Positions 1,453 through 28,653 of a stretch of 36,370 nt of DNA are shown one piece after another. The notes beneath the pieces are model-generated. The model saw only the letters and a program-made list of their open reading frames with translations. It was not told the origin of the DNA and did not search any database. The DNA is from a virus. Taxonomy: Duplodnaviria > Heunggongvirae > Uroviricota > Caudoviricetes. The position numbers and the translations under genes are program-made. The stretch lies in IMG/VR virus record IMGVR_UViG_2617270997_000026; one strand, given 5' to 3'. The first letter of the stretch is position 1. Every line of letters starts with the position of its first letter.

Positions 1453-3300
1453 TCAATCTCCAAAAGCAATCCAGTAAGCAAAAGGATTTACTCCTTGCTC
1501 AGTCACAGATGACATCAGGGAAAATTGCGATGGTGAAACAGGTAACGCTGCAAAACTAACCATTGTTGACACACCTGACCGTGCATTATCGTACGATGCA
1601 ACAACACAATAATTGGTATTGCTGAAAGATATCGGCAGGGGGATATTTACAGGTGAGCCTAATGGCCCTGATGCTGATATTCCCATTTGAATGATGGTTC
1701 CATCAGGCAATTTTCTCCAGCGATTAGAACTCGGATCTCTTTTCCAGGCTGACATATCCGGTATCTGATTTTCTCCTGTACCCACATCCCTTTTCGCCGC
1801 TTCTCCCAAACCAAGGTAATTGAGGACTTCTTTTATACTGCCCATAGCGATAATAGCGCGACCAATAGCTGTAAGGGTTGTCAGTGCTGCGCGGTCTGCT
1901 CCGGTAAAATAAGGCAACCGATCTGCTGCAGTGGCAAGTCCTGCCAGAGCAGTGAGCGTGGCATCTGCCGGTTGTTTTCCGTTTGCCAGATCGTATGCAG
2001 CCTTGACCGCTTTCGGTGTGGCGGCCAGTATTTCAGACGTGCTGTTGATGTCACTGCTCAATTGTACGGTGCCTTTTGCCGTCAGCGAGGCAGCAGGCAC
2101 TCCCGTTATCTGACGCCACGGGTGAGTGTGGCTGACGGGCGCCTTGCCGGCTGCAAGGTCGTATGCAGCCTTGACCGCCTTCGGCGTGGCAGCCTCAGTT
2201 TCTGATTGACTGTCCGTGGCGCTGCTCAGTTGTACGGTGCCTTTTGCCGTCAGTGAAGCCGCAGGCACTCCCGTTATCTGACTCCACGGGTGAGTGTGGC
2301 TGGCAGGCGCCTTGCCGGCTGCAAGGTCGTATGCAGCCTTGACCGCCTTCGGCGTGGCAGCCTCAGTTTCTGATTGACTGTCCGTGGCGCTGCTCAGTTG
2401 TACGGTGCCTTTTGCCGTCAGTGAAGCCGCAGGCACTCCCGTTATCTGACTCCACGGGTGAGTGTGGCTGGCAGGCGCCTTGCCGGCTGCAAGGTCGTAT
2501 GCAGCCTTGACCGCCTTCGGCGTGGCAGCCTCAGTTTCTGATTGACTGTCCGTGGCGCTGCTCAGTTGTACGGTGCCTTTTGCCGTCAGCGAGGCAGCAG
2601 GGACTCCCGTTATCTGACTCCACGGGTGAGTGTGGCTGACGGGCGCCTTGCCGGCTGCAAGGTCGTATGCAGCCTTGACCGCCTTCGGCGTGGCAGCCTC
2701 AGTTTCTGATTGACTGTCCGTGGCGCTGCTCAGTTGTACGGTGCCTTTTGCCGTCAGCGAGGCAGCAGGGACTCCCGTTATCTGACTCCACGGGTGAGTG
2801 TGGCTGACGGGCGCCTTGCCGGCTGCAAGGTCGTATGCAGCCTTGACCGCCTTCGGCGTGGCAGCCTCAGTTTCTGATTGACTGTCCGTGGCGCTGCTCA
2901 GTTGTACGGTGCCTTTTGCCGTCAGCGAGGCAGCAGGCACTCCCGTTATCTGACTCCACGGGTGAGTATGGCTGACGGGGGCCTTGCCGGCAGCCAGGTC
3001 ATATGCAGCCTTGACGGCCTTTGGTGTGGCGGCCAGCGTTTCAGAGGTGCTGTTGGTGGCACTGCTCAGTTGGGTGAACCCCTTAGCTGTCAGTGTCGCG
3101 TCCGGGTGGTTACGGGAACGTACGTGTTCAGCCAGTGACTGTGCGGCTTCCTCCGTTTTTTTCTTCAGCCATTTCGTCCTGTTTGCCAGTTGCCGGGGGG
3201 CTCGATTTGATATCCCGTCTGCACCACCCAGAACCGGATCTGATGTCTCCAGTTGATAGATATTTTCTTCCCACTTTTCTGTTTCATTCAGGTTTCCCAT
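1453..3300 (-). CDS. Tail fibre protein (constant N-terminus, repeat region, variable C-terminus)
   Basis: 615 aa from ATG at 3300 (track start 3306 is TTG); TGA of upstream gene 2 nt before. Seven SETxAATPKAVKAAYDLA-type fibre repeats, then conserved DATLTALAGL...RLPYFTG, then variable tip. Confidence 0.85.
   Translation of the reverse strand: MGNLNETEKWEENIYQLETSDPVLGGADGISNRAPRQLANRTKWLKKKTEEAAQSLAEHVRSRNHPDATLTAKGFTQLSSATNSTSETLAATPKAVKAAYDLAAGKAPVSHTHPWSQITGVPAASLTAKGTVQLSSATDSQSETEAATPKAVKAAYDLAAGKAPVSHTHPWSQITGVPAASLTAKGTVQLSSATDSQSETEAATPKAVKAAYDLAAGKAPVSHTHPWSQITGVPAASLTAKGTVQLSSATDSQSETEAATPKAVKAAYDLAAGKAPASHTHPWSQITGVPAASLTAKGTVQLSSATDSQSETEAATPKAVKAAYDLAAGKAPASHTHPWSQITGVPAASLTAKGTVQLSSATDSQSETEAATPKAVKAAYDLAAGKAPVSHTHPWRQITGVPAASLTAKGTVQLSSDINSTSEILAATPKAVKAAYDLANGKQPADATLTALAGLATAADRLPYFTGADRAALTTLTAIGRAIIAMGSIKEVLNYLGLGEAAKRDVGTGENQIPDMSAWKRDPSSNRWRKLPDGTIIQMGISASGPLGSPVNIPLPISFSNTNYCVVASYDNARSGVSTMVSFAALPVSPSQFSLMSSVTEQGVNPFAYWIAFGD
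1801..1826. other. hix/gix-like 26-bp crossover site for a serine DNA invertase, inside the tail fibre gene
   Basis: TTCTCCCAAACCAAGGTAATTGAGGA resembles hixL (TTCTTGAAAACCAAGGTTTTTGATAA) as I recall it, sharing the AAACCAAGGT core. It sits at the constant/variable junction of the fibre ORF; the partner half-site is at window start. Confidence 0.55.
1920..3095 (-). repeat. Seven tandem 168-bp (56-aa) in-frame repeats within the tail fibre gene; five central copies near-identical
   Basis: The string ttgtacggtgcc recurs at 2062, 2230, 2398, 2566 (spacing 168); further copies by period. Protein unit LTAKGTVQLSSATDSQSETEAATPKAVKAAYDLAAGKAPVSHTHPWSQITGVPAAS. Confidence 0.85.
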
Positions 3301-25292: not shown

Positions 25293-25422
25293 GTGTGTAT
25301 CCTCGTTTGGTGGAGACAGCATCACAAATACAGGGCGCAAAGGATTTTAAAGCGCGTTAAGAGAGCCGGGGATACGGGATGTGCAGGATAAACGATGAAT
25401 TATTCACAGAGGAGAATACGAT
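25293..25422. promoter_or_regulatory. Divergent promoter region between late arm and P-loop gene
   Basis: 130-bp non-coding spacer between two divergently oriented starts, each with a strong RBS. Confidence 0.35.
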
Positions 25423-25899
25423 ATGACGCACACACTGAATCCGGTCATCACTGTCACTGTGTCCGGTCCTGTGGGCAGCGGTAAAAGTTACGTACTGGCG
25501 CGGATAGAAGAGATGGTGAAACAGGAACTCGGAAACAGCGTCATTGTCGATGCTGCTGACGTGGAGAATGAGCGCCGTATGAATGGCGAAGATCTGACGA
25601 CCTGGCAGAAGCCACGGGGTGGCACAGTGATCAGGCTAGAGGAATACACGGGACAGGGCCTGTTGTCATACGGCGAGGAGCGTATCTGTCGGACGAATGA
25701 GCTGCTGGATGTTATATGCCCCACGGGCCGGCAACCCTGGATACTGCCCGATGCACTGCATGCCACCATTGCGGCACTGATGACAGTTTACGATCAGGAG
25801 CTGCTCATGAAGGAGTTACGTAAACTCACCGGTCAGCCAACAGAATGTTGTTCGTCTCCGAAGTACGGCAAACAGGAAAACGCCCCGGATAATCCTTAA
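25423..25899 (+). CDS. Small P-loop NTPase-fold protein, function unknown (accessory gene)
   Basis: 158 aa; ATG at 25423 after GAGGAGAA RBS; Walker A GPVGSGKS at residues 15-22, Walker B-like VIVD about 20 residues later; transcribed opposite to late arm. Confidence 0.7.
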   Translation: MTHTLNPVITVTVSGPVGSGKSYVLARIEEMVKQELGNSVIVDAADVENERRMNGEDLTTWQKPRGGTVIRLEEYTGQGLLSYGEERICRTNELLDVICPTGRQPWILPDALHATIAALMTVYDQELLMKELRKLTGQPTECCSSPKYGKQENAPDNP

Positions 25900-25918
25900 G
25901 ATACCTCCTGAACAGAAA

Positions 25919-25934
25919 CAGCCCTGAAGGGCTG
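25919..25934 (-). terminator. Intrinsic terminator closing the repressor operon
   Basis: Plus-strand cagccc-tgaa-gggctg hairpin; on minus strand followed by UUUCUGUUCAGG; lies just downstream of stop of 25937..26518 gene. Confidence 0.5.
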
Positions 25935-25936
25935 CA

Positions 25937-26518
25937 CTAAAAAAAGAAGTGTATTATTGCCCAAACAGCTATAACGATGATTCCCAGCCCAAGAGCCGAT
26001 TCTAACTTATCTTTGGCAGTCATTTTTACTGTTGTAGCGGGCGCAGGTAAGTCTTGCTGCTGTGGATTTTCTGTTAGTTGTTTACGAGAAGAAACATCGC
26101 CCCTATTAGTTTGCTTCATGTTGATTACAGATGCGTTATGGGCATTATCAGCAGCAATTGACTGAAGTTTTACAAAAGTTTTTGAATCTGTTTTAGCCAG
26201 AAGTAACCTATTTCCCGTAAACATTGCCTTAAAAGTGATAGTTTTTTTCGTCTTGTCCGCCGCACCAAGCAAACCTCCAATGACCAACCCTGCACCACCA
26301 AAGATTAATCCACCAAGCAAACCTGCGCCTGCCGCCTTACCTATACGGCTTTCCTCTTCACTATCCGCAAGTTCAATCGATAAAAGCTCTTCTTTCAGAT
26401 TTAATACAATATTTTCAGGAAAGCCTTGTTTTGGTTTTTTGGCAAACACGATGGTACCGAACCCCATGCTTGCCCACCCTTTAGGAAAACTTCCTGCGAT
26501 AACCTGAATCCCTGCCAT
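25937..26518 (-). CDS. Glycine-zipper membrane protein with C-terminal tail anchor (accessory, repressor operon)
   Basis: 193 aa from ATG at 26518 (AAGGTG 9 nt upstream); GKAAGAGLLGGLIFGGAGLVIGGLLGAA glycine-zipper segment; C-terminal hydrophobic anchor LGLGIIVIAVWAIIHFFF. Confidence 0.7.
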   Translation of the reverse strand: MAGIQVIAGSFPKGWASMGFGTIVFAKKPKQGFPENIVLNLKEELLSIELADSEEESRIGKAAGAGLLGGLIFGGAGLVIGGLLGAADKTKKTITFKAMFTGNRLLLAKTDSKTFVKLQSIAADNAHNASVINMKQTNRGDVSSRKQLTENPQQQDLPAPATTVKMTAKDKLESALGLGIIVIAVWAIIHFFF

Positions 26519-26608
26519 GTTCATCACCTTTTACATTAAAATTTCAGAACGCAGCATGATGCCGCCTTTGTCTTTTTTCTGATCCCATGGTAATTCAGCT
26601 GTTATTTT

Positions 26609-27595
26609 CTATTTAAGAATAAAACGGTATTTACTGTCAGGAGTGCTTTGCTGATCAAGTAGCAGTGAACGACATGGAGCAGTCAAAACCCGAGCATAAC
26701 TACCATCAGGGCTTATGTTAATGTAACAAACCTTGCCCTTAACACTATAATTTTCGGGGACGGATGCCTTTGCTGATACAGTAAATTTAAGGGTATGCCA
26801 GCCCGTTTTTTGCTTGTAGCTTGAAACCGAATGGAAATCATCTGAGTACTTATTTAACCCTGGAAACATGCTGCGCAGTGCGGGGATGGAATCTTCTATT
26901 ATTTTATCGTTGGTTTTAATGTTAAAAACGCTGGTTTCAGTAGAAGCTACTGCTTTGGCATTTCCCCATTTACCAGCGAACACAATCATTCCCACGAAAA
27001 ATATTGCTACAAGAACTAACACTCCCCCCAACACTACTACATGAGGCTTCCGGCTTCTGGTTGGTACAGTTGCGACTGATTTTGCACCGCTTTCCGATGG
27101 AGGTGATAGAGTTTTACTCTCATCACGAATATTCAGCAGATCATCAAAATAACCAAACACAGCCTGCAACTGCTCTTTGTCTAGGCCTTTAAGATGGGTT
27201 GTACCGAAATGCTTCAGACAGTATCTGTCACGGTCAAGACGATACCCAGGGTCAGTAAGCGCCATTATTTTGCTGACCAGAAGATTACAGTCCTTCATAT
27301 TCTGGATCTGTTGTGCATATCTCTGAAGGATCTCAACCGCACCATGATAATCAGCCGCAGTCATTTCATTAACTGTTTTGGTATTAAGTTTCGTGTGGAT
27401 CGTCATCCATAGCTCGCGCTTACTTTCCCCCAGATCAACCAATTCATCCATCAATCTGTGTAAATCGCGTTTTTGCAGCAACGAAATTGGTTGCTGGGCC
27501 GAAGGAAGTATGTCAGCAGAATAGTTATGAATGGTAACATCACCGCTGACAACGTTACCCACATCCCCGTTAACTGTTTGCTTCTCTTTACTCAT
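26609..27595 (-). CDS. Single-pass membrane protein (accessory, translationally coupled to repressor)
   Basis: 328 aa; ATG at 27595 overlaps repressor TGA (ATGA); one TM helix HVVVLGGVLVLVAIFFVGMIVFAG around residues 183-206; C-terminal about 120-aa extracytoplasmic domain with two Cys. Confidence 0.75.
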   Translation of the reverse strand: MSKEKQTVNGDVGNVVSGDVTIHNYSADILPSAQQPISLLQKRDLHRLMDELVDLGESKRELWMTIHTKLNTKTVNEMTAADYHGAVEILQRYAQQIQNMKDCNLLVSKIMALTDPGYRLDRDRYCLKHFGTTHLKGLDKEQLQAVFGYFDDLLNIRDESKTLSPPSESGAKSVATVPTRSRKPHVVVLGGVLVLVAIFFVGMIVFAGKWGNAKAVASTETSVFNIKTNDKIIEDSIPALRSMFPGLNKYSDDFHSVSSYKQKTGWHTLKFTVSAKASVPENYSVKGKVCYINISPDGSYARVLTAPCRSLLLDQQSTPDSKYRFILK

Positions 27596-28053
27596 CTTCT
27601 CTTGGTATTTTTGTTCATTATTCCACCTGTTCCTATGGTTACGTTACCTTTGATAACATTCCCCAGAACATCTCCATGAATAACCTGTTCCGCCCGTTCT
27701 CTGGAGGAGCCAGTAGTCAAGGCCGACAAAACTGAACCTTTGACCTGTAATGGTGCCTGCCGGTAGTGCTGCAGTAACTCCATTTCATCACGTGATAAAG
27801 TTATACCTGATGACTCCCCGGTAAGAATGAACTGTACATTGGCCCCAATTCTTGCAAAGGCTGCAAGTAACTCACCTCCGGGAACAGCAACCCCTCGTTC
27901 ATATTTCCCCCACATTTCTCTTGAAACGCCACAAAGGGCTGCTACTTCAGCCTGCTTGAGTGATAACCGCGAACGCTCAGCTTTGAACCGCGACGCGCAA
28001 AGAGAATCAAAATTCACATAAACCTCATTGACAATGAGAACAATAGTTCTCAT
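27592..28053 (-). CDS. Immunity repressor (XRE-family HTH, c/cI-like)
   Basis: HTH motif LSLKQAEVAALCGVSREMWGKYERG; divergent from ner-like early operon. ATG at 28053 has no SD (possibly leaderless); alternative GTG at 28017 with GAGG. Confidence 0.8.
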   Translation of the reverse strand: MRTIVLIVNEVYVNFDSLCASRFKAERSRLSLKQAEVAALCGVSREMWGKYERGVAVPGGELLAAFARIGANVQFILTGESSGITLSRDEMELLQHYRQAPLQVKGSVLSALTTGSSRERAEQVIHGDVLGNVIKGNVTIGTGGIMNKNTKRR

Positions 28054-28103
28054 AATCTATCACATATAAAACAAACATCATTGCATCAACAAAGGAGACA
28101 ACA
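28054..28103. promoter_or_regulatory. Immunity switch region (divergent repressor/early promoters, operators expected)
   Basis: 50-bp AT-rich spacer (ctatcacatataaaacaaacatcattgcatcaac) between divergent repressor and ner-like starts. Confidence 0.45.
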
Positions 28104-28292
28104 ATGACTTCCGAACAAGTTAAAAATCTCTTCCGTCAGCGTGGTATCACGTTTACCCGCTGGGCCGAAGAACACGGCTACAGCCGCAATGAGGTCTATC
28201 GTGTTCTCAATGGACAGACCAAAGCTCGTTACGGCAAAGCCCATGAAATTGCCGTAAAACTGGGATTAAAACCCACGTCAAATGCGGCATAA
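28104..28292 (+). CDS. Ner-like small DNA-binding regulator (first early gene)
   Basis: 62 aa; AAGGAG RBS; motif WAEEHGYSRNEVYRVLNG...GKAHEIAVKLGL consistent with Ner/Nlp-type HTH; position as Mu ner. Confidence 0.55.
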   Translation: MTSEQVKNLFRQRGITFTRWAEEHGYSRNEVYRVLNGQTKARYGKAHEIAVKLGLKPTSNAA

Positions 28293-28344
28293 ATTTTCCA
28301 CATATGCAACAGGTTATCACATATTGCAAAAATGGAAATGTGAC

Positions 28345-28653
28345 ATGAGTAAAGTAAATATTTCCAGTTCTGGGACCCGCATCCTACGTGTACTCAAAGC
28401 TCTACGCGGTCATGCTCTGAACGGTGTTTCTAACGGTGAACTGGCATCAGCCCTGGGGGAGTCCCCGGCGAATATCAATCGAGCACTTAATACCCTTATT
28501 GAAGAGGGACTGGCCATGAAATTAGAGAACGGACGTTTCGCACCGGGAATCCAGTTACTACAGATCGCCATGGCTCACAGTCACGAGATGGCGCGTGCAC
28601 AGGATCGTATTAACGAAATCAACCAACGAGTTATTTCAGGTAGTCGTTTGTAA
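28345..28653 (+). CDS. Putative winged-helix DNA-binding protein
   Basis: About 103 aa from ATG 28345 (track start 28282 overlaps ner-like gene); RILRVLKALRGHALNGVSNGELASALGESPANINRALNTLIEEGLA resembles IclR/MarR-type wHTH. Start uncertain. Confidence 0.45.
   Translation: MSKVNISSSGTRILRVLKALRGHALNGVSNGELASALGESPANINRALNTLIEEGLAMKLENGRFAPGIQLLQIAMAHSHEMARAQDRINEINQRVISGSRL

Follow-up and report, generated by a model that had tools for sequence, protein, structure and literature searches.

Gene content of the immunity region

The window analyzed here, the whole 36,370-nucleotide stretch of IMG/VR record IMGVR_UViG_2617270997_000026, is a BcepMu-type transposable prophage of Escherichia coli. 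We describe three leftward open reading frames (ORFs) of its immunity region, which encode an immunity repressor and two membrane proteins of 328 and 193 residues, named ORF328 and ORF193. Reading along the minus strand from position 28053, the repressor (27592–28053; 153 residues as annotated; Pfam HTH_31/HTH_3) is followed by ORF328 (26609–27595), a bitopic inner-membrane protein of the BcepMu gp18 family, and by ORF193 (25937–26518), a putative PH_gly_zipper-family protein whose gene is preceded by a ribosome-binding site, AAGGTGA. The ATG of ORF328 and the TGA of the repressor overlap as ATGA at positions 27592–27595, which we read as translational coupling, and a 90-bp spacer (26519–26608) lies between ORF328 and ORF193. 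Divergently from the repressor, the plus strand carries a Pe-like promoter and, from position 28104, an early operon comprising a ner-like gene, an IclR-type helix-turn-helix (HTH) gene, a DUF3102 gene, the rve transposase gene and a gene for an AAA protein. Past ORF193 are found a convergent gene for a 158-residue P-loop protein, then the holin, an SLT transglycosylase and the late genes. A terminator-like hairpin on the minus strand (GCAGCCC-TTCA-GGGCTGT followed by TTCTGTT; 25918–25935; 7-bp stem with five GC pairs) separates ORF193 from this P-loop gene and closes the leftward unit.

That hairpin is the sole terminator-like site detected between positions 25300 and 28400. The scan of this interval revealed none between the repressor, ORF328 and ORF193, and promoter-like matches within ORF328 occurred at chance level only. 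The three genes are likely co-transcribed. A preliminary description of this DNA had already located the stop-start overlap, the single-pass ORF328, the 90-bp spacer and the closing hairpin, and had recognized a glycine zipper and a C-terminal tail anchor in the 193-residue protein, both of which are evident from its hydropathy. We agree with it on all of these features, and its suggestion that three co-oriented genes closed by one hairpin are expressed in lysogens is plausible.

The region spanning 25300–28400 is 100% identical to sequences in the chromosomes of E. coli CE10, IAI39 and other strains, and is present in its entirety in 99 of 5426 complete genomes. RefSeq annotates the repressor, ORF328 and ORF193 in CE10 and IAI39, with the same start for the 193-residue protein. 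The GC content drops to 41–47% between approximately 25.5 and 29 kb, compared to about 57% elsewhere. Both membrane proteins are products of real genes, since each has conserved homologs in several genera; those of ORF328 (44–82% identity) occur in Salmonella, Yersinia, Serratia and Morganella, and those of ORF193 share 66–72% identity with it.

Matching motifs in the repressor and its membrane partner

The repressor is composed of an N-terminal XRE-type HTH domain, a conserved middle helix (LSRDEMELLQHYRQAPLQVK), a C-terminal motif and a basic tail (NKNTKRR). Its HTH domain has the RstR family as best NCBIfam match (28.4 bits for a cut-off of 80), and the protein shares 39% identity with BcepMu gp17 (E = 5e-20). 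ORF328 is organized as an N-terminal motif, a cytoplasmic Flk_N-like helical domain, a single membrane helix and a periplasmic alpha/beta domain. Its Flk_N-like domain (residues 19–147; 27155–27541, minus strand) matches NCBIfam NF007987 (Flk) with E = 2.9e-12 and is 25% identical over 133 residues to Flk of E. coli K-12 by BLASTP; the NF007987 match is confined to this N-terminal domain and scores 46.6 bits, below the family cut-off of 353 bits for a full-length match. Homologs of ORF328 also carry the precomputed Pfam tag PF27202 Flk_N. In the AlphaFold/AF2 model, residues 1–29 are disordered (predicted local distance difference test, pLDDT, <50) and residues 30–160 form a confident helical domain (pLDDT >90), followed by a linker, the membrane helix and a confident alpha/beta domain at residues 225–328. 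The transmembrane helix (approximately residues 186–208; 26972–27040, minus strand) is marked by a hydropathy peak of 3.05 at residues 186–204 and by a model helix at residues 190–205. The periplasmic domain (residues ~225–328; 26612–26923, minus strand; pLDDT >90) contains two conserved cysteines.

The tail of the repressor (HGDVLGNVIKGNVTIG) resembles the N-terminus of ORF328 over approximately 16 residues (NGDVGNVVSGDVTIH); the repressor ends with ...QVIHGDVLGNVIKGNVTIGTGGIMNKNTKRR and ORF328 starts with MSKEKQTVNGDVGNVVSGDVTIHNY. The motif is delimited as VIHGDVLGNVIKGNVTIG in the repressor (residues 124–141; 27631–27684, minus strand) and as VNGDVGNVVSGDVTIH in ORF328 (residues 8–23; 27527–27574, minus strand), where it is disordered in the monomer model and is the most conserved stretch of the family, with columns G10 to I22 nearly invariant in our alignment of homologs (A1). 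Local alignment of the repressor motif with the N-terminus of ORF328 yielded a score of 60 (z = 7.8) that was equalled by none of 1000 shuffles. The two segments agree at ten of 13 aligned residues, with different codons at six of these ten, which indicates that the likeness is kept by selection on the protein. For the same reason, recent gene conversion or duplication was rejected as its source. Neither the motif shared with the repressor tail nor the Flk_N-like domain had been noticed in the preliminary description.

The two genes also travel together. Throughout the 13 enterobacterial loci examined (Salmonella, Yersinia, Serratia and IMG/VR relatives), a homolog of ORF328 overlaps the stop codon of a motif-bearing repressor, and the repressor motif is kept in all 13 even where the HTH differs, the same tail being joined to differing HTH domains. 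Additional loci were gathered in two ways, from the partner (48 loci; a narrower query of genome contigs gave 7) and from the repressor (80 IMG/VR loci). In the partner-first survey, the gene directly upstream encodes a motif-bearing repressor in 40 of 48 loci and a motif-less one in 3, the remaining 5 being unclassified; within those 40 loci the spacing between repressor and partner ranges from a 4-bp overlap to 10 bp. The repressor-first survey identified a downstream ORF in 79 of 80 loci, and 36 of 39 unique pairs match each other at z of at least 4.3 relative to shuffles.

Approximately ten variants of the motif were found, each on both partners of its locus, in BcepMu-like and P2-like prophages of Enterobacteria, Pseudomonas and Burkholderia. 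Representative pairs are GDVLGNVIKGNVTIG / GDVGNVVSGDVTI in enterobacteria, FQSVGQYIHGSVNQSGLTLNVG / FQGGVGQAAEGDINNYGINISL and FHGAVGQAVAGNITNKSGVTFNVG / FHGEVGQAAGGDINNYGVNISLV in Pseudomonas, and NNRIAGRDYNE / NNRVAGRDFHE in P2-like prophages; other pairs are GGVAARDIIN / GGVAGRDIVN, GQFAGNQIIN / GQFSSRDIIN and GQVAGRNIIN / GQVAGRDINN. In Pseudomonas, three motif types (A, B and C) coexist, and the motifs of any one locus invariably match. The N-terminus of the partner is also remodelled in the loci whose repressor is without the motif (L037, L046 and L075). About 45 P2-like prophages in IMG/VR carry an intact 216-residue motif partner. The P2-like Escherichia phage 520873 (NC_049344; L084, 2453–3530, minus strand) has a repressor ending in ...GGNNRIAGRDYNETKGR and an unannotated downstream gene beginning with MAVNSNGSNNRVAGRDFHE; this partner gene is frameshifted into ORFs 2898–3065 and 2453–2800, and the intact form is found in the IMG/VR relatives just mentioned.

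A third family bearing the motif was observed in Pseudomonas. These proteins of 118–137 residues have two membrane helices and the same N-terminal motif (e.g. MTIHGSVGQVAYGDIHNHG) as is found in the repressor tail and the Flk_N partner, and they are encoded in at least 11 loci, including L035 (4517–4900) and L042 (3804–4196). They are the sole partner of the repressor in L117 and L131. This family is a third member of the motif network and a candidate effector.

Origin of the pair and its exchangeable neighbors

The preliminary description regarded the genes behind the repressor as an insertion if BcepMu-type phages place their lysis genes directly after the repressor/ner block. That premise is incorrect. 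In BcepMu the repressor gp17 overlaps the membrane protein gp18, and gp18, gp19 and gp20 precede the holin. Like the pair described here, gp17/gp18 lies between the ner-like early operon and the lysis genes with an identical 4-bp overlap, and gp18 aligns with a profile that includes the N-terminal half of ORF328 (A3) at an hhalign probability of 96.6% (E = 6e-10). Because position, overlap and homology all correspond, ORF328 is, on this comparison, an ancestral companion of its repressor class and not an insertion. BcepMu gp18 differs from ORF328 in its length of 260 residues and in a different, short periplasmic tail; it has no recorded function, so that the comparison informs on ancestry, not on mechanism.

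A profile search of 1.84 billion proteins retrieved 112 relatives of ORF328 in two groups, N-domain proteins (mostly 185–270 residues, tail-anchored) and C-domain proteins (130–200 residues). Most N-domain relatives that align from their first residues bear a related N-terminal motif. ORF328 combines both parts, its periplasmic domain extending for about 120 residues beyond the membrane; the short relatives P0022 and P0196 end at the tail anchor. The periplasmic domain is a stand-alone lipoprotein gene in Pseudomonas relatives, L012, L033, L035 and Klebsiella phage KP12 clone KP12_2. In the Pseudomonas relatives and L012, this gene encodes a lipoprotein signal peptide and lies directly 3′ of the short Flk_N-plus-anchor gene, and a neighboring separate lipoprotein gene was found in 13 of 43 unfused loci. 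In KP12_2 (OM835952; L166, 2540–3519), the lipoprotein gene immediately follows that of a coiled-coil repressor lacking the motif. The clone, whose record is assigned to Vequintavirinae, nevertheless has a BcepMu-type gene order (transposase, IclR-type HTH, Dam methylase, holin). Its occurrence alone behind an unrelated repressor identifies the periplasmic domain as an autonomous module. Foldseek comparison of the ORF328 model with the PDB and BFVD gave no match at E ≤ 0.001, so that the domain has no assignable fold, and a sequence search of the PDB returned no match.

The Flk_N domain recurs widely among tail-anchored proteins encoded by prophages of Pseudomonas, Burkholderia and Enterobacteria. 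Host Flk (E. coli K-12 flk, b2321; L008) might therefore descend from such a phage gene after losing the N-terminal motif.

What follows the pair is exchangeable, with at least five unrelated genes in third place. The third gene behind ORF328 homologs encodes an ORF193-like protein, a protein of 89, 249, 175–177 residues, or one of 203 residues plus a DUF2441 protein, or is missing altogether. In E. coli 504211 (L029, 1040–2636, minus strand), the repressor–ORF328 pair is followed by the unrelated 203-residue gene and the DUF2441 gene in place of ORF193, from which we conclude that the site exchanges cargo. Comparison with relatives, which the preliminary description had called for, thus places variable cargo downstream of the repressor. 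Conversely, ORF193 homologs (L009–L011; P0032, common) are found directly behind an unrelated CI-type repressor without ORF328. The invariant N-terminus of ORF193, MAGIQVIAG, was considered as a link to the motif network and rejected, as it is kept behind a motif-less repressor. Judged by these contexts, ORF193 is an unrelated, independent cargo in a variable site behind the immunity genes.

ORF193 contains a glycine zipper at residues 62–87 and a C-terminal tail anchor at residues 175–193. The precomputed tag PF27000 PH_gly_zipper is present on P0026 and P0027 (97% identical to ORF193) and on P0032 (72% identical, where it is marked weak). The order of strands and helices is compatible with a PH fold split by the glycine zipper and followed by a linker and the tail anchor, in a model of poor confidence (pLDDT 36). 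ORF193 is predicted to be PH-like and to face the cytoplasm, held by its tail anchor, with a glycine zipper that dips into the membrane. A tblastn search against cultured phages gave no match. Its position and mobility suit what is probably a lysogen-expressed accessory gene, and a role in exclusion, abortive infection or toxin-like membrane action is a reasonable guess that falls somewhat short of an even chance.

Upstream of the pair, the early Pe-like promoter (TTGACA-17-CATAAT; 28028–28056, plus strand) contains an operator-like perfect palindrome, ATGAGAAC-N4-GTTCTCAT (28034–28053), located exactly between its −35 and −10 elements. Three copies of CAATGAGR occur within 172 bp (28023–28194), and four in the entire window. 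The palindrome and the CAATGAGR copies are likely candidates for repressor operators. As these candidate operators lie within the 5′ part of the repressor ORF as annotated, translation probably begins at the GTG at 28017 (141 residues), the start called for the Salmonella homolog.

At the other end, the convergent 158-residue P-loop protein (25423–25899, plus strand; GPVGSGKS) is annotated by RefSeq as an ABC transporter ATPase and belongs to phrog_3787. DNA identity to phage PhiKM stops at approximately 25887, beside the hairpin; here the immunity region has its left mosaic boundary. The PhiKM counterpart of the P-loop gene encodes 242 residues; the possibility that the 158-residue gene is a cut-down version of it was rejected, since the identical 158-residue form is found elsewhere.

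Possible functions of the repressor–ORF328 pair

The persistence of matching motifs through many changes is most simply explained by direct and specific pairing of the two. We propose that the repressor and ORF328 form a conserved two-protein module, counterpart of BcepMu gp17/gp18. ORF328 would reside in the inner membrane with its motif and Flk_N-like domain toward the cytoplasm and its alpha/beta domain toward the periplasm, and its N-terminal motif would pair directly with the C-terminal motif of the repressor, strand against strand. Through such pairing the repressor would be tethered, sequestered or drawn into a joint assembly at the membrane, and its activity, i.e. the maintenance of lysogeny or its induction, would then vary with the state of its partner. 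We favor this reading, in which ORF328 modulates the repressor by retaining it at the membrane or assembling with it there, and we consider it evenly balanced between right and wrong.

A comparable layout is known from sigma/anti-sigma envelope-stress operons of the rpoE-rseA-rseB type, in which a regulator is followed first by a protein that spans the membrane once and has a binding region in its cytoplasmic N-terminus, and then by a periplasmic protein. Here too, a regulator gene is coupled to that of a single-pass membrane protein, the periplasmic part being separate in Pseudomonas loci and fused in ORF328. The differences are that the regulator is a repressor, that the proposed contact involves a short terminal motif, and that Pfam and NCBIfam scans detected no anti-sigma or anti-regulator binding domain in ORF328. 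Control of a phage repressor by assembly also has a precedent in RstC, the antirepressor of Vibrio RS1, which switches off its target by driving aggregation. Unlike ORF328, RstC is a small soluble protein encoded elsewhere, and we know of no terminal motif that it shares with its repressor.

Several observations weigh against membrane control of the repressor by ORF328. The contact itself is deduced from sequence. Many of the loci are near-identical prophages, so that the independent evidence amounts to roughly ten motif variants and not 100 loci, and joint inheritance of linked genes inflates the apparent co-variation. A few pairs match poorly, L100 and L102 with z of about 3 and L104 with a z of −0.4; the BcepMu pair, which shares FHGSVGQAV / FNKPVGQAI, reaches a modest z of 3.7. 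In approximately 460 E. coli genomes and phage PhiKM, a different immunity region encodes a lone 118-residue repressor, with a Dam methylase gene on the opposite strand, and the partner is thus not needed for this phage type in general. Finally, the periplasmic domain, found alone behind the motif-less KP12_2 repressor, may not be a sensor but an autonomous lipoprotein of the exclusion type, and its presence within ORF328 may be an incidental fusion.

The pairing could take a more elaborate form. Matched motifs may be single rungs of a cross-beta assembly, amyloid- or solenoid-like, in which the membrane partner templates the repressor tail into an inactive polymer, or the reverse; we regard this as conceivable though unlikely. 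Paired motifs of this kind are known from amyloid-signaling systems, namely the BASS motifs with Bell/NLR proteins and the Bab/Agp pairs of E. coli prophages (bioRxiv 10.1101/2020.01.06.895854; 10.1101/2024.11.07.622273). Their motifs are likewise short, rich in G, N, Q and V, and matched; the upstream protein carries its copy C-terminally and the downstream protein N-terminally, and the two genes are adjacent or overlapping. The partners differ, being here an HTH repressor and a Flk_N-like membrane protein instead of a Bell-type executioner and an NLR/TPR sensor. The G-phi-Q-phi-G signature is confined to some Pseudomonas variants and absent from the window.

The same geometry, including the 4-bp overlap, would also fit an abortive-infection or exclusion device resembling Bab/Agp, in which the repressor serves as sensor or guard and the motif-bearing membrane proteins are effectors switched on by motif templating once the repressor is attacked or displaced. 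Its effectors would include, in Pseudomonas, two-helix proteins of 127–137 residues besides the ORF328 type, and the recurrence of the small two-helix family, including the loci in which it is the only partner, is in line with this. However, a single tail anchor and a helical Flk_N-like domain are unlike a pore former, ORF328 has no similarity to Bell/HeLo domains, and the repressor is not of a known sensor type; we judge this device to be rather unlikely.

It is improbable that the motif is instead a common tag through which some third factor, for instance a protease of the host, a chaperone or an antirepressor of a phage, degrades or regulates both proteins jointly. The motif is terminal on both, a basic tail follows it in the repressor, and ClpXP controls the Mu repressor through the repressor C-terminus. 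However, the distinct Pseudomonas variants that coexist in one host genus and always match within loci argue for recognition specific to the partner rather than to a host factor.

The preliminary description had compared the locus to lambda cI-rexA-rexB, and had seen in ORF328 and ORF193 a candidate module for exclusion or abortive infection, made in lysogens from the transcript of the repressor as RexA/RexB are. The arrangement stands, with accessory genes downstream of the repressor on the same strand, no terminator between them and one hairpin at the end. That both products are membrane proteins, that GC content is low and that the site carries variable cargo would also suit such a pair. 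What does not stand is the pairing: ORF328 and ORF193 each occur without the other, so that they are not a Rex-like couple, and the ORF328 family is fixed to one repressor class across genera through a co-varying shared motif, with no homology to the lambda genes. As the preliminary description had also noted, neither protein falls into a known defense family, PADLOC giving a noise-level hit for ORF328 (E = 0.014) and nothing for ORF193, and Pfam and NCBIfam offering no link to Rex or other defense families. A Rex-like pair is very improbable.

In Salmonella and E. coli, the flagellar secretion switch is inhibited by Flk (Fluke, RflH), a tail-anchored cytoplasmic protein for which binding to the FlhA cytoplasmic domain has been tested (PMC13344023). 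That ORF328 mimics Flk at the flagellar type III export gate, altering motility or flagellum-dependent phage resistance in lysogens, is highly improbable despite genuine homology of the N-terminal helical domain and a membrane anchor C-terminal of it in both proteins, given the low similarity (46.6 bits for a cut-off of 353), the absence from Flk of the N-terminal motif, a periplasmic domain and a neighboring repressor, and the obligatory link to a motif-bearing repressor that it would leave unexplained.

Our searches of the literature on repressor–membrane partners, BcepMu immunity, glycine-zipper prophage proteins and repressor amyloids produced no pertinent work, and in the searchable literature we found neither the motif pair nor a role for gp18 nor a membrane partner of these repressors described. 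The elements resemble known kinds, paired signaling motifs and membrane anti-regulators, and their combination with a phage repressor appears to be new. The matched pair suggests that a phage repressor may be connected directly to the cell membrane, in a way not described before. These repressors of 125–165 residues lack a LexA-like cleavage domain; a conserved membrane partner, matched to them by a co-evolving terminal motif, provides a concrete candidate for the means by which such transposable and P2-like prophages sense when to exit. If true, paired-motif logic, so far tied to cell-death effectors, would extend to the control of a DNA-binding protein. Should the cross-beta form hold, the prophage switch would be flipped by a self-propagating conformational signal from the envelope, not by RecA-type cleavage or a soluble antirepressor, and amyloid signaling would act on a transcription factor, as a mechanism widespread among BcepMu-like and P2-like phages. 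These findings also give context to the uncharacterized gp18 family and suggest a possible origin for the host flagellar regulator Flk. The motif pair offers a simple sequence signature for locating immunity modules, and the site behind the repressor–ORF328 pair is a place to seek lysogen-expressed cargo such as ORF193.

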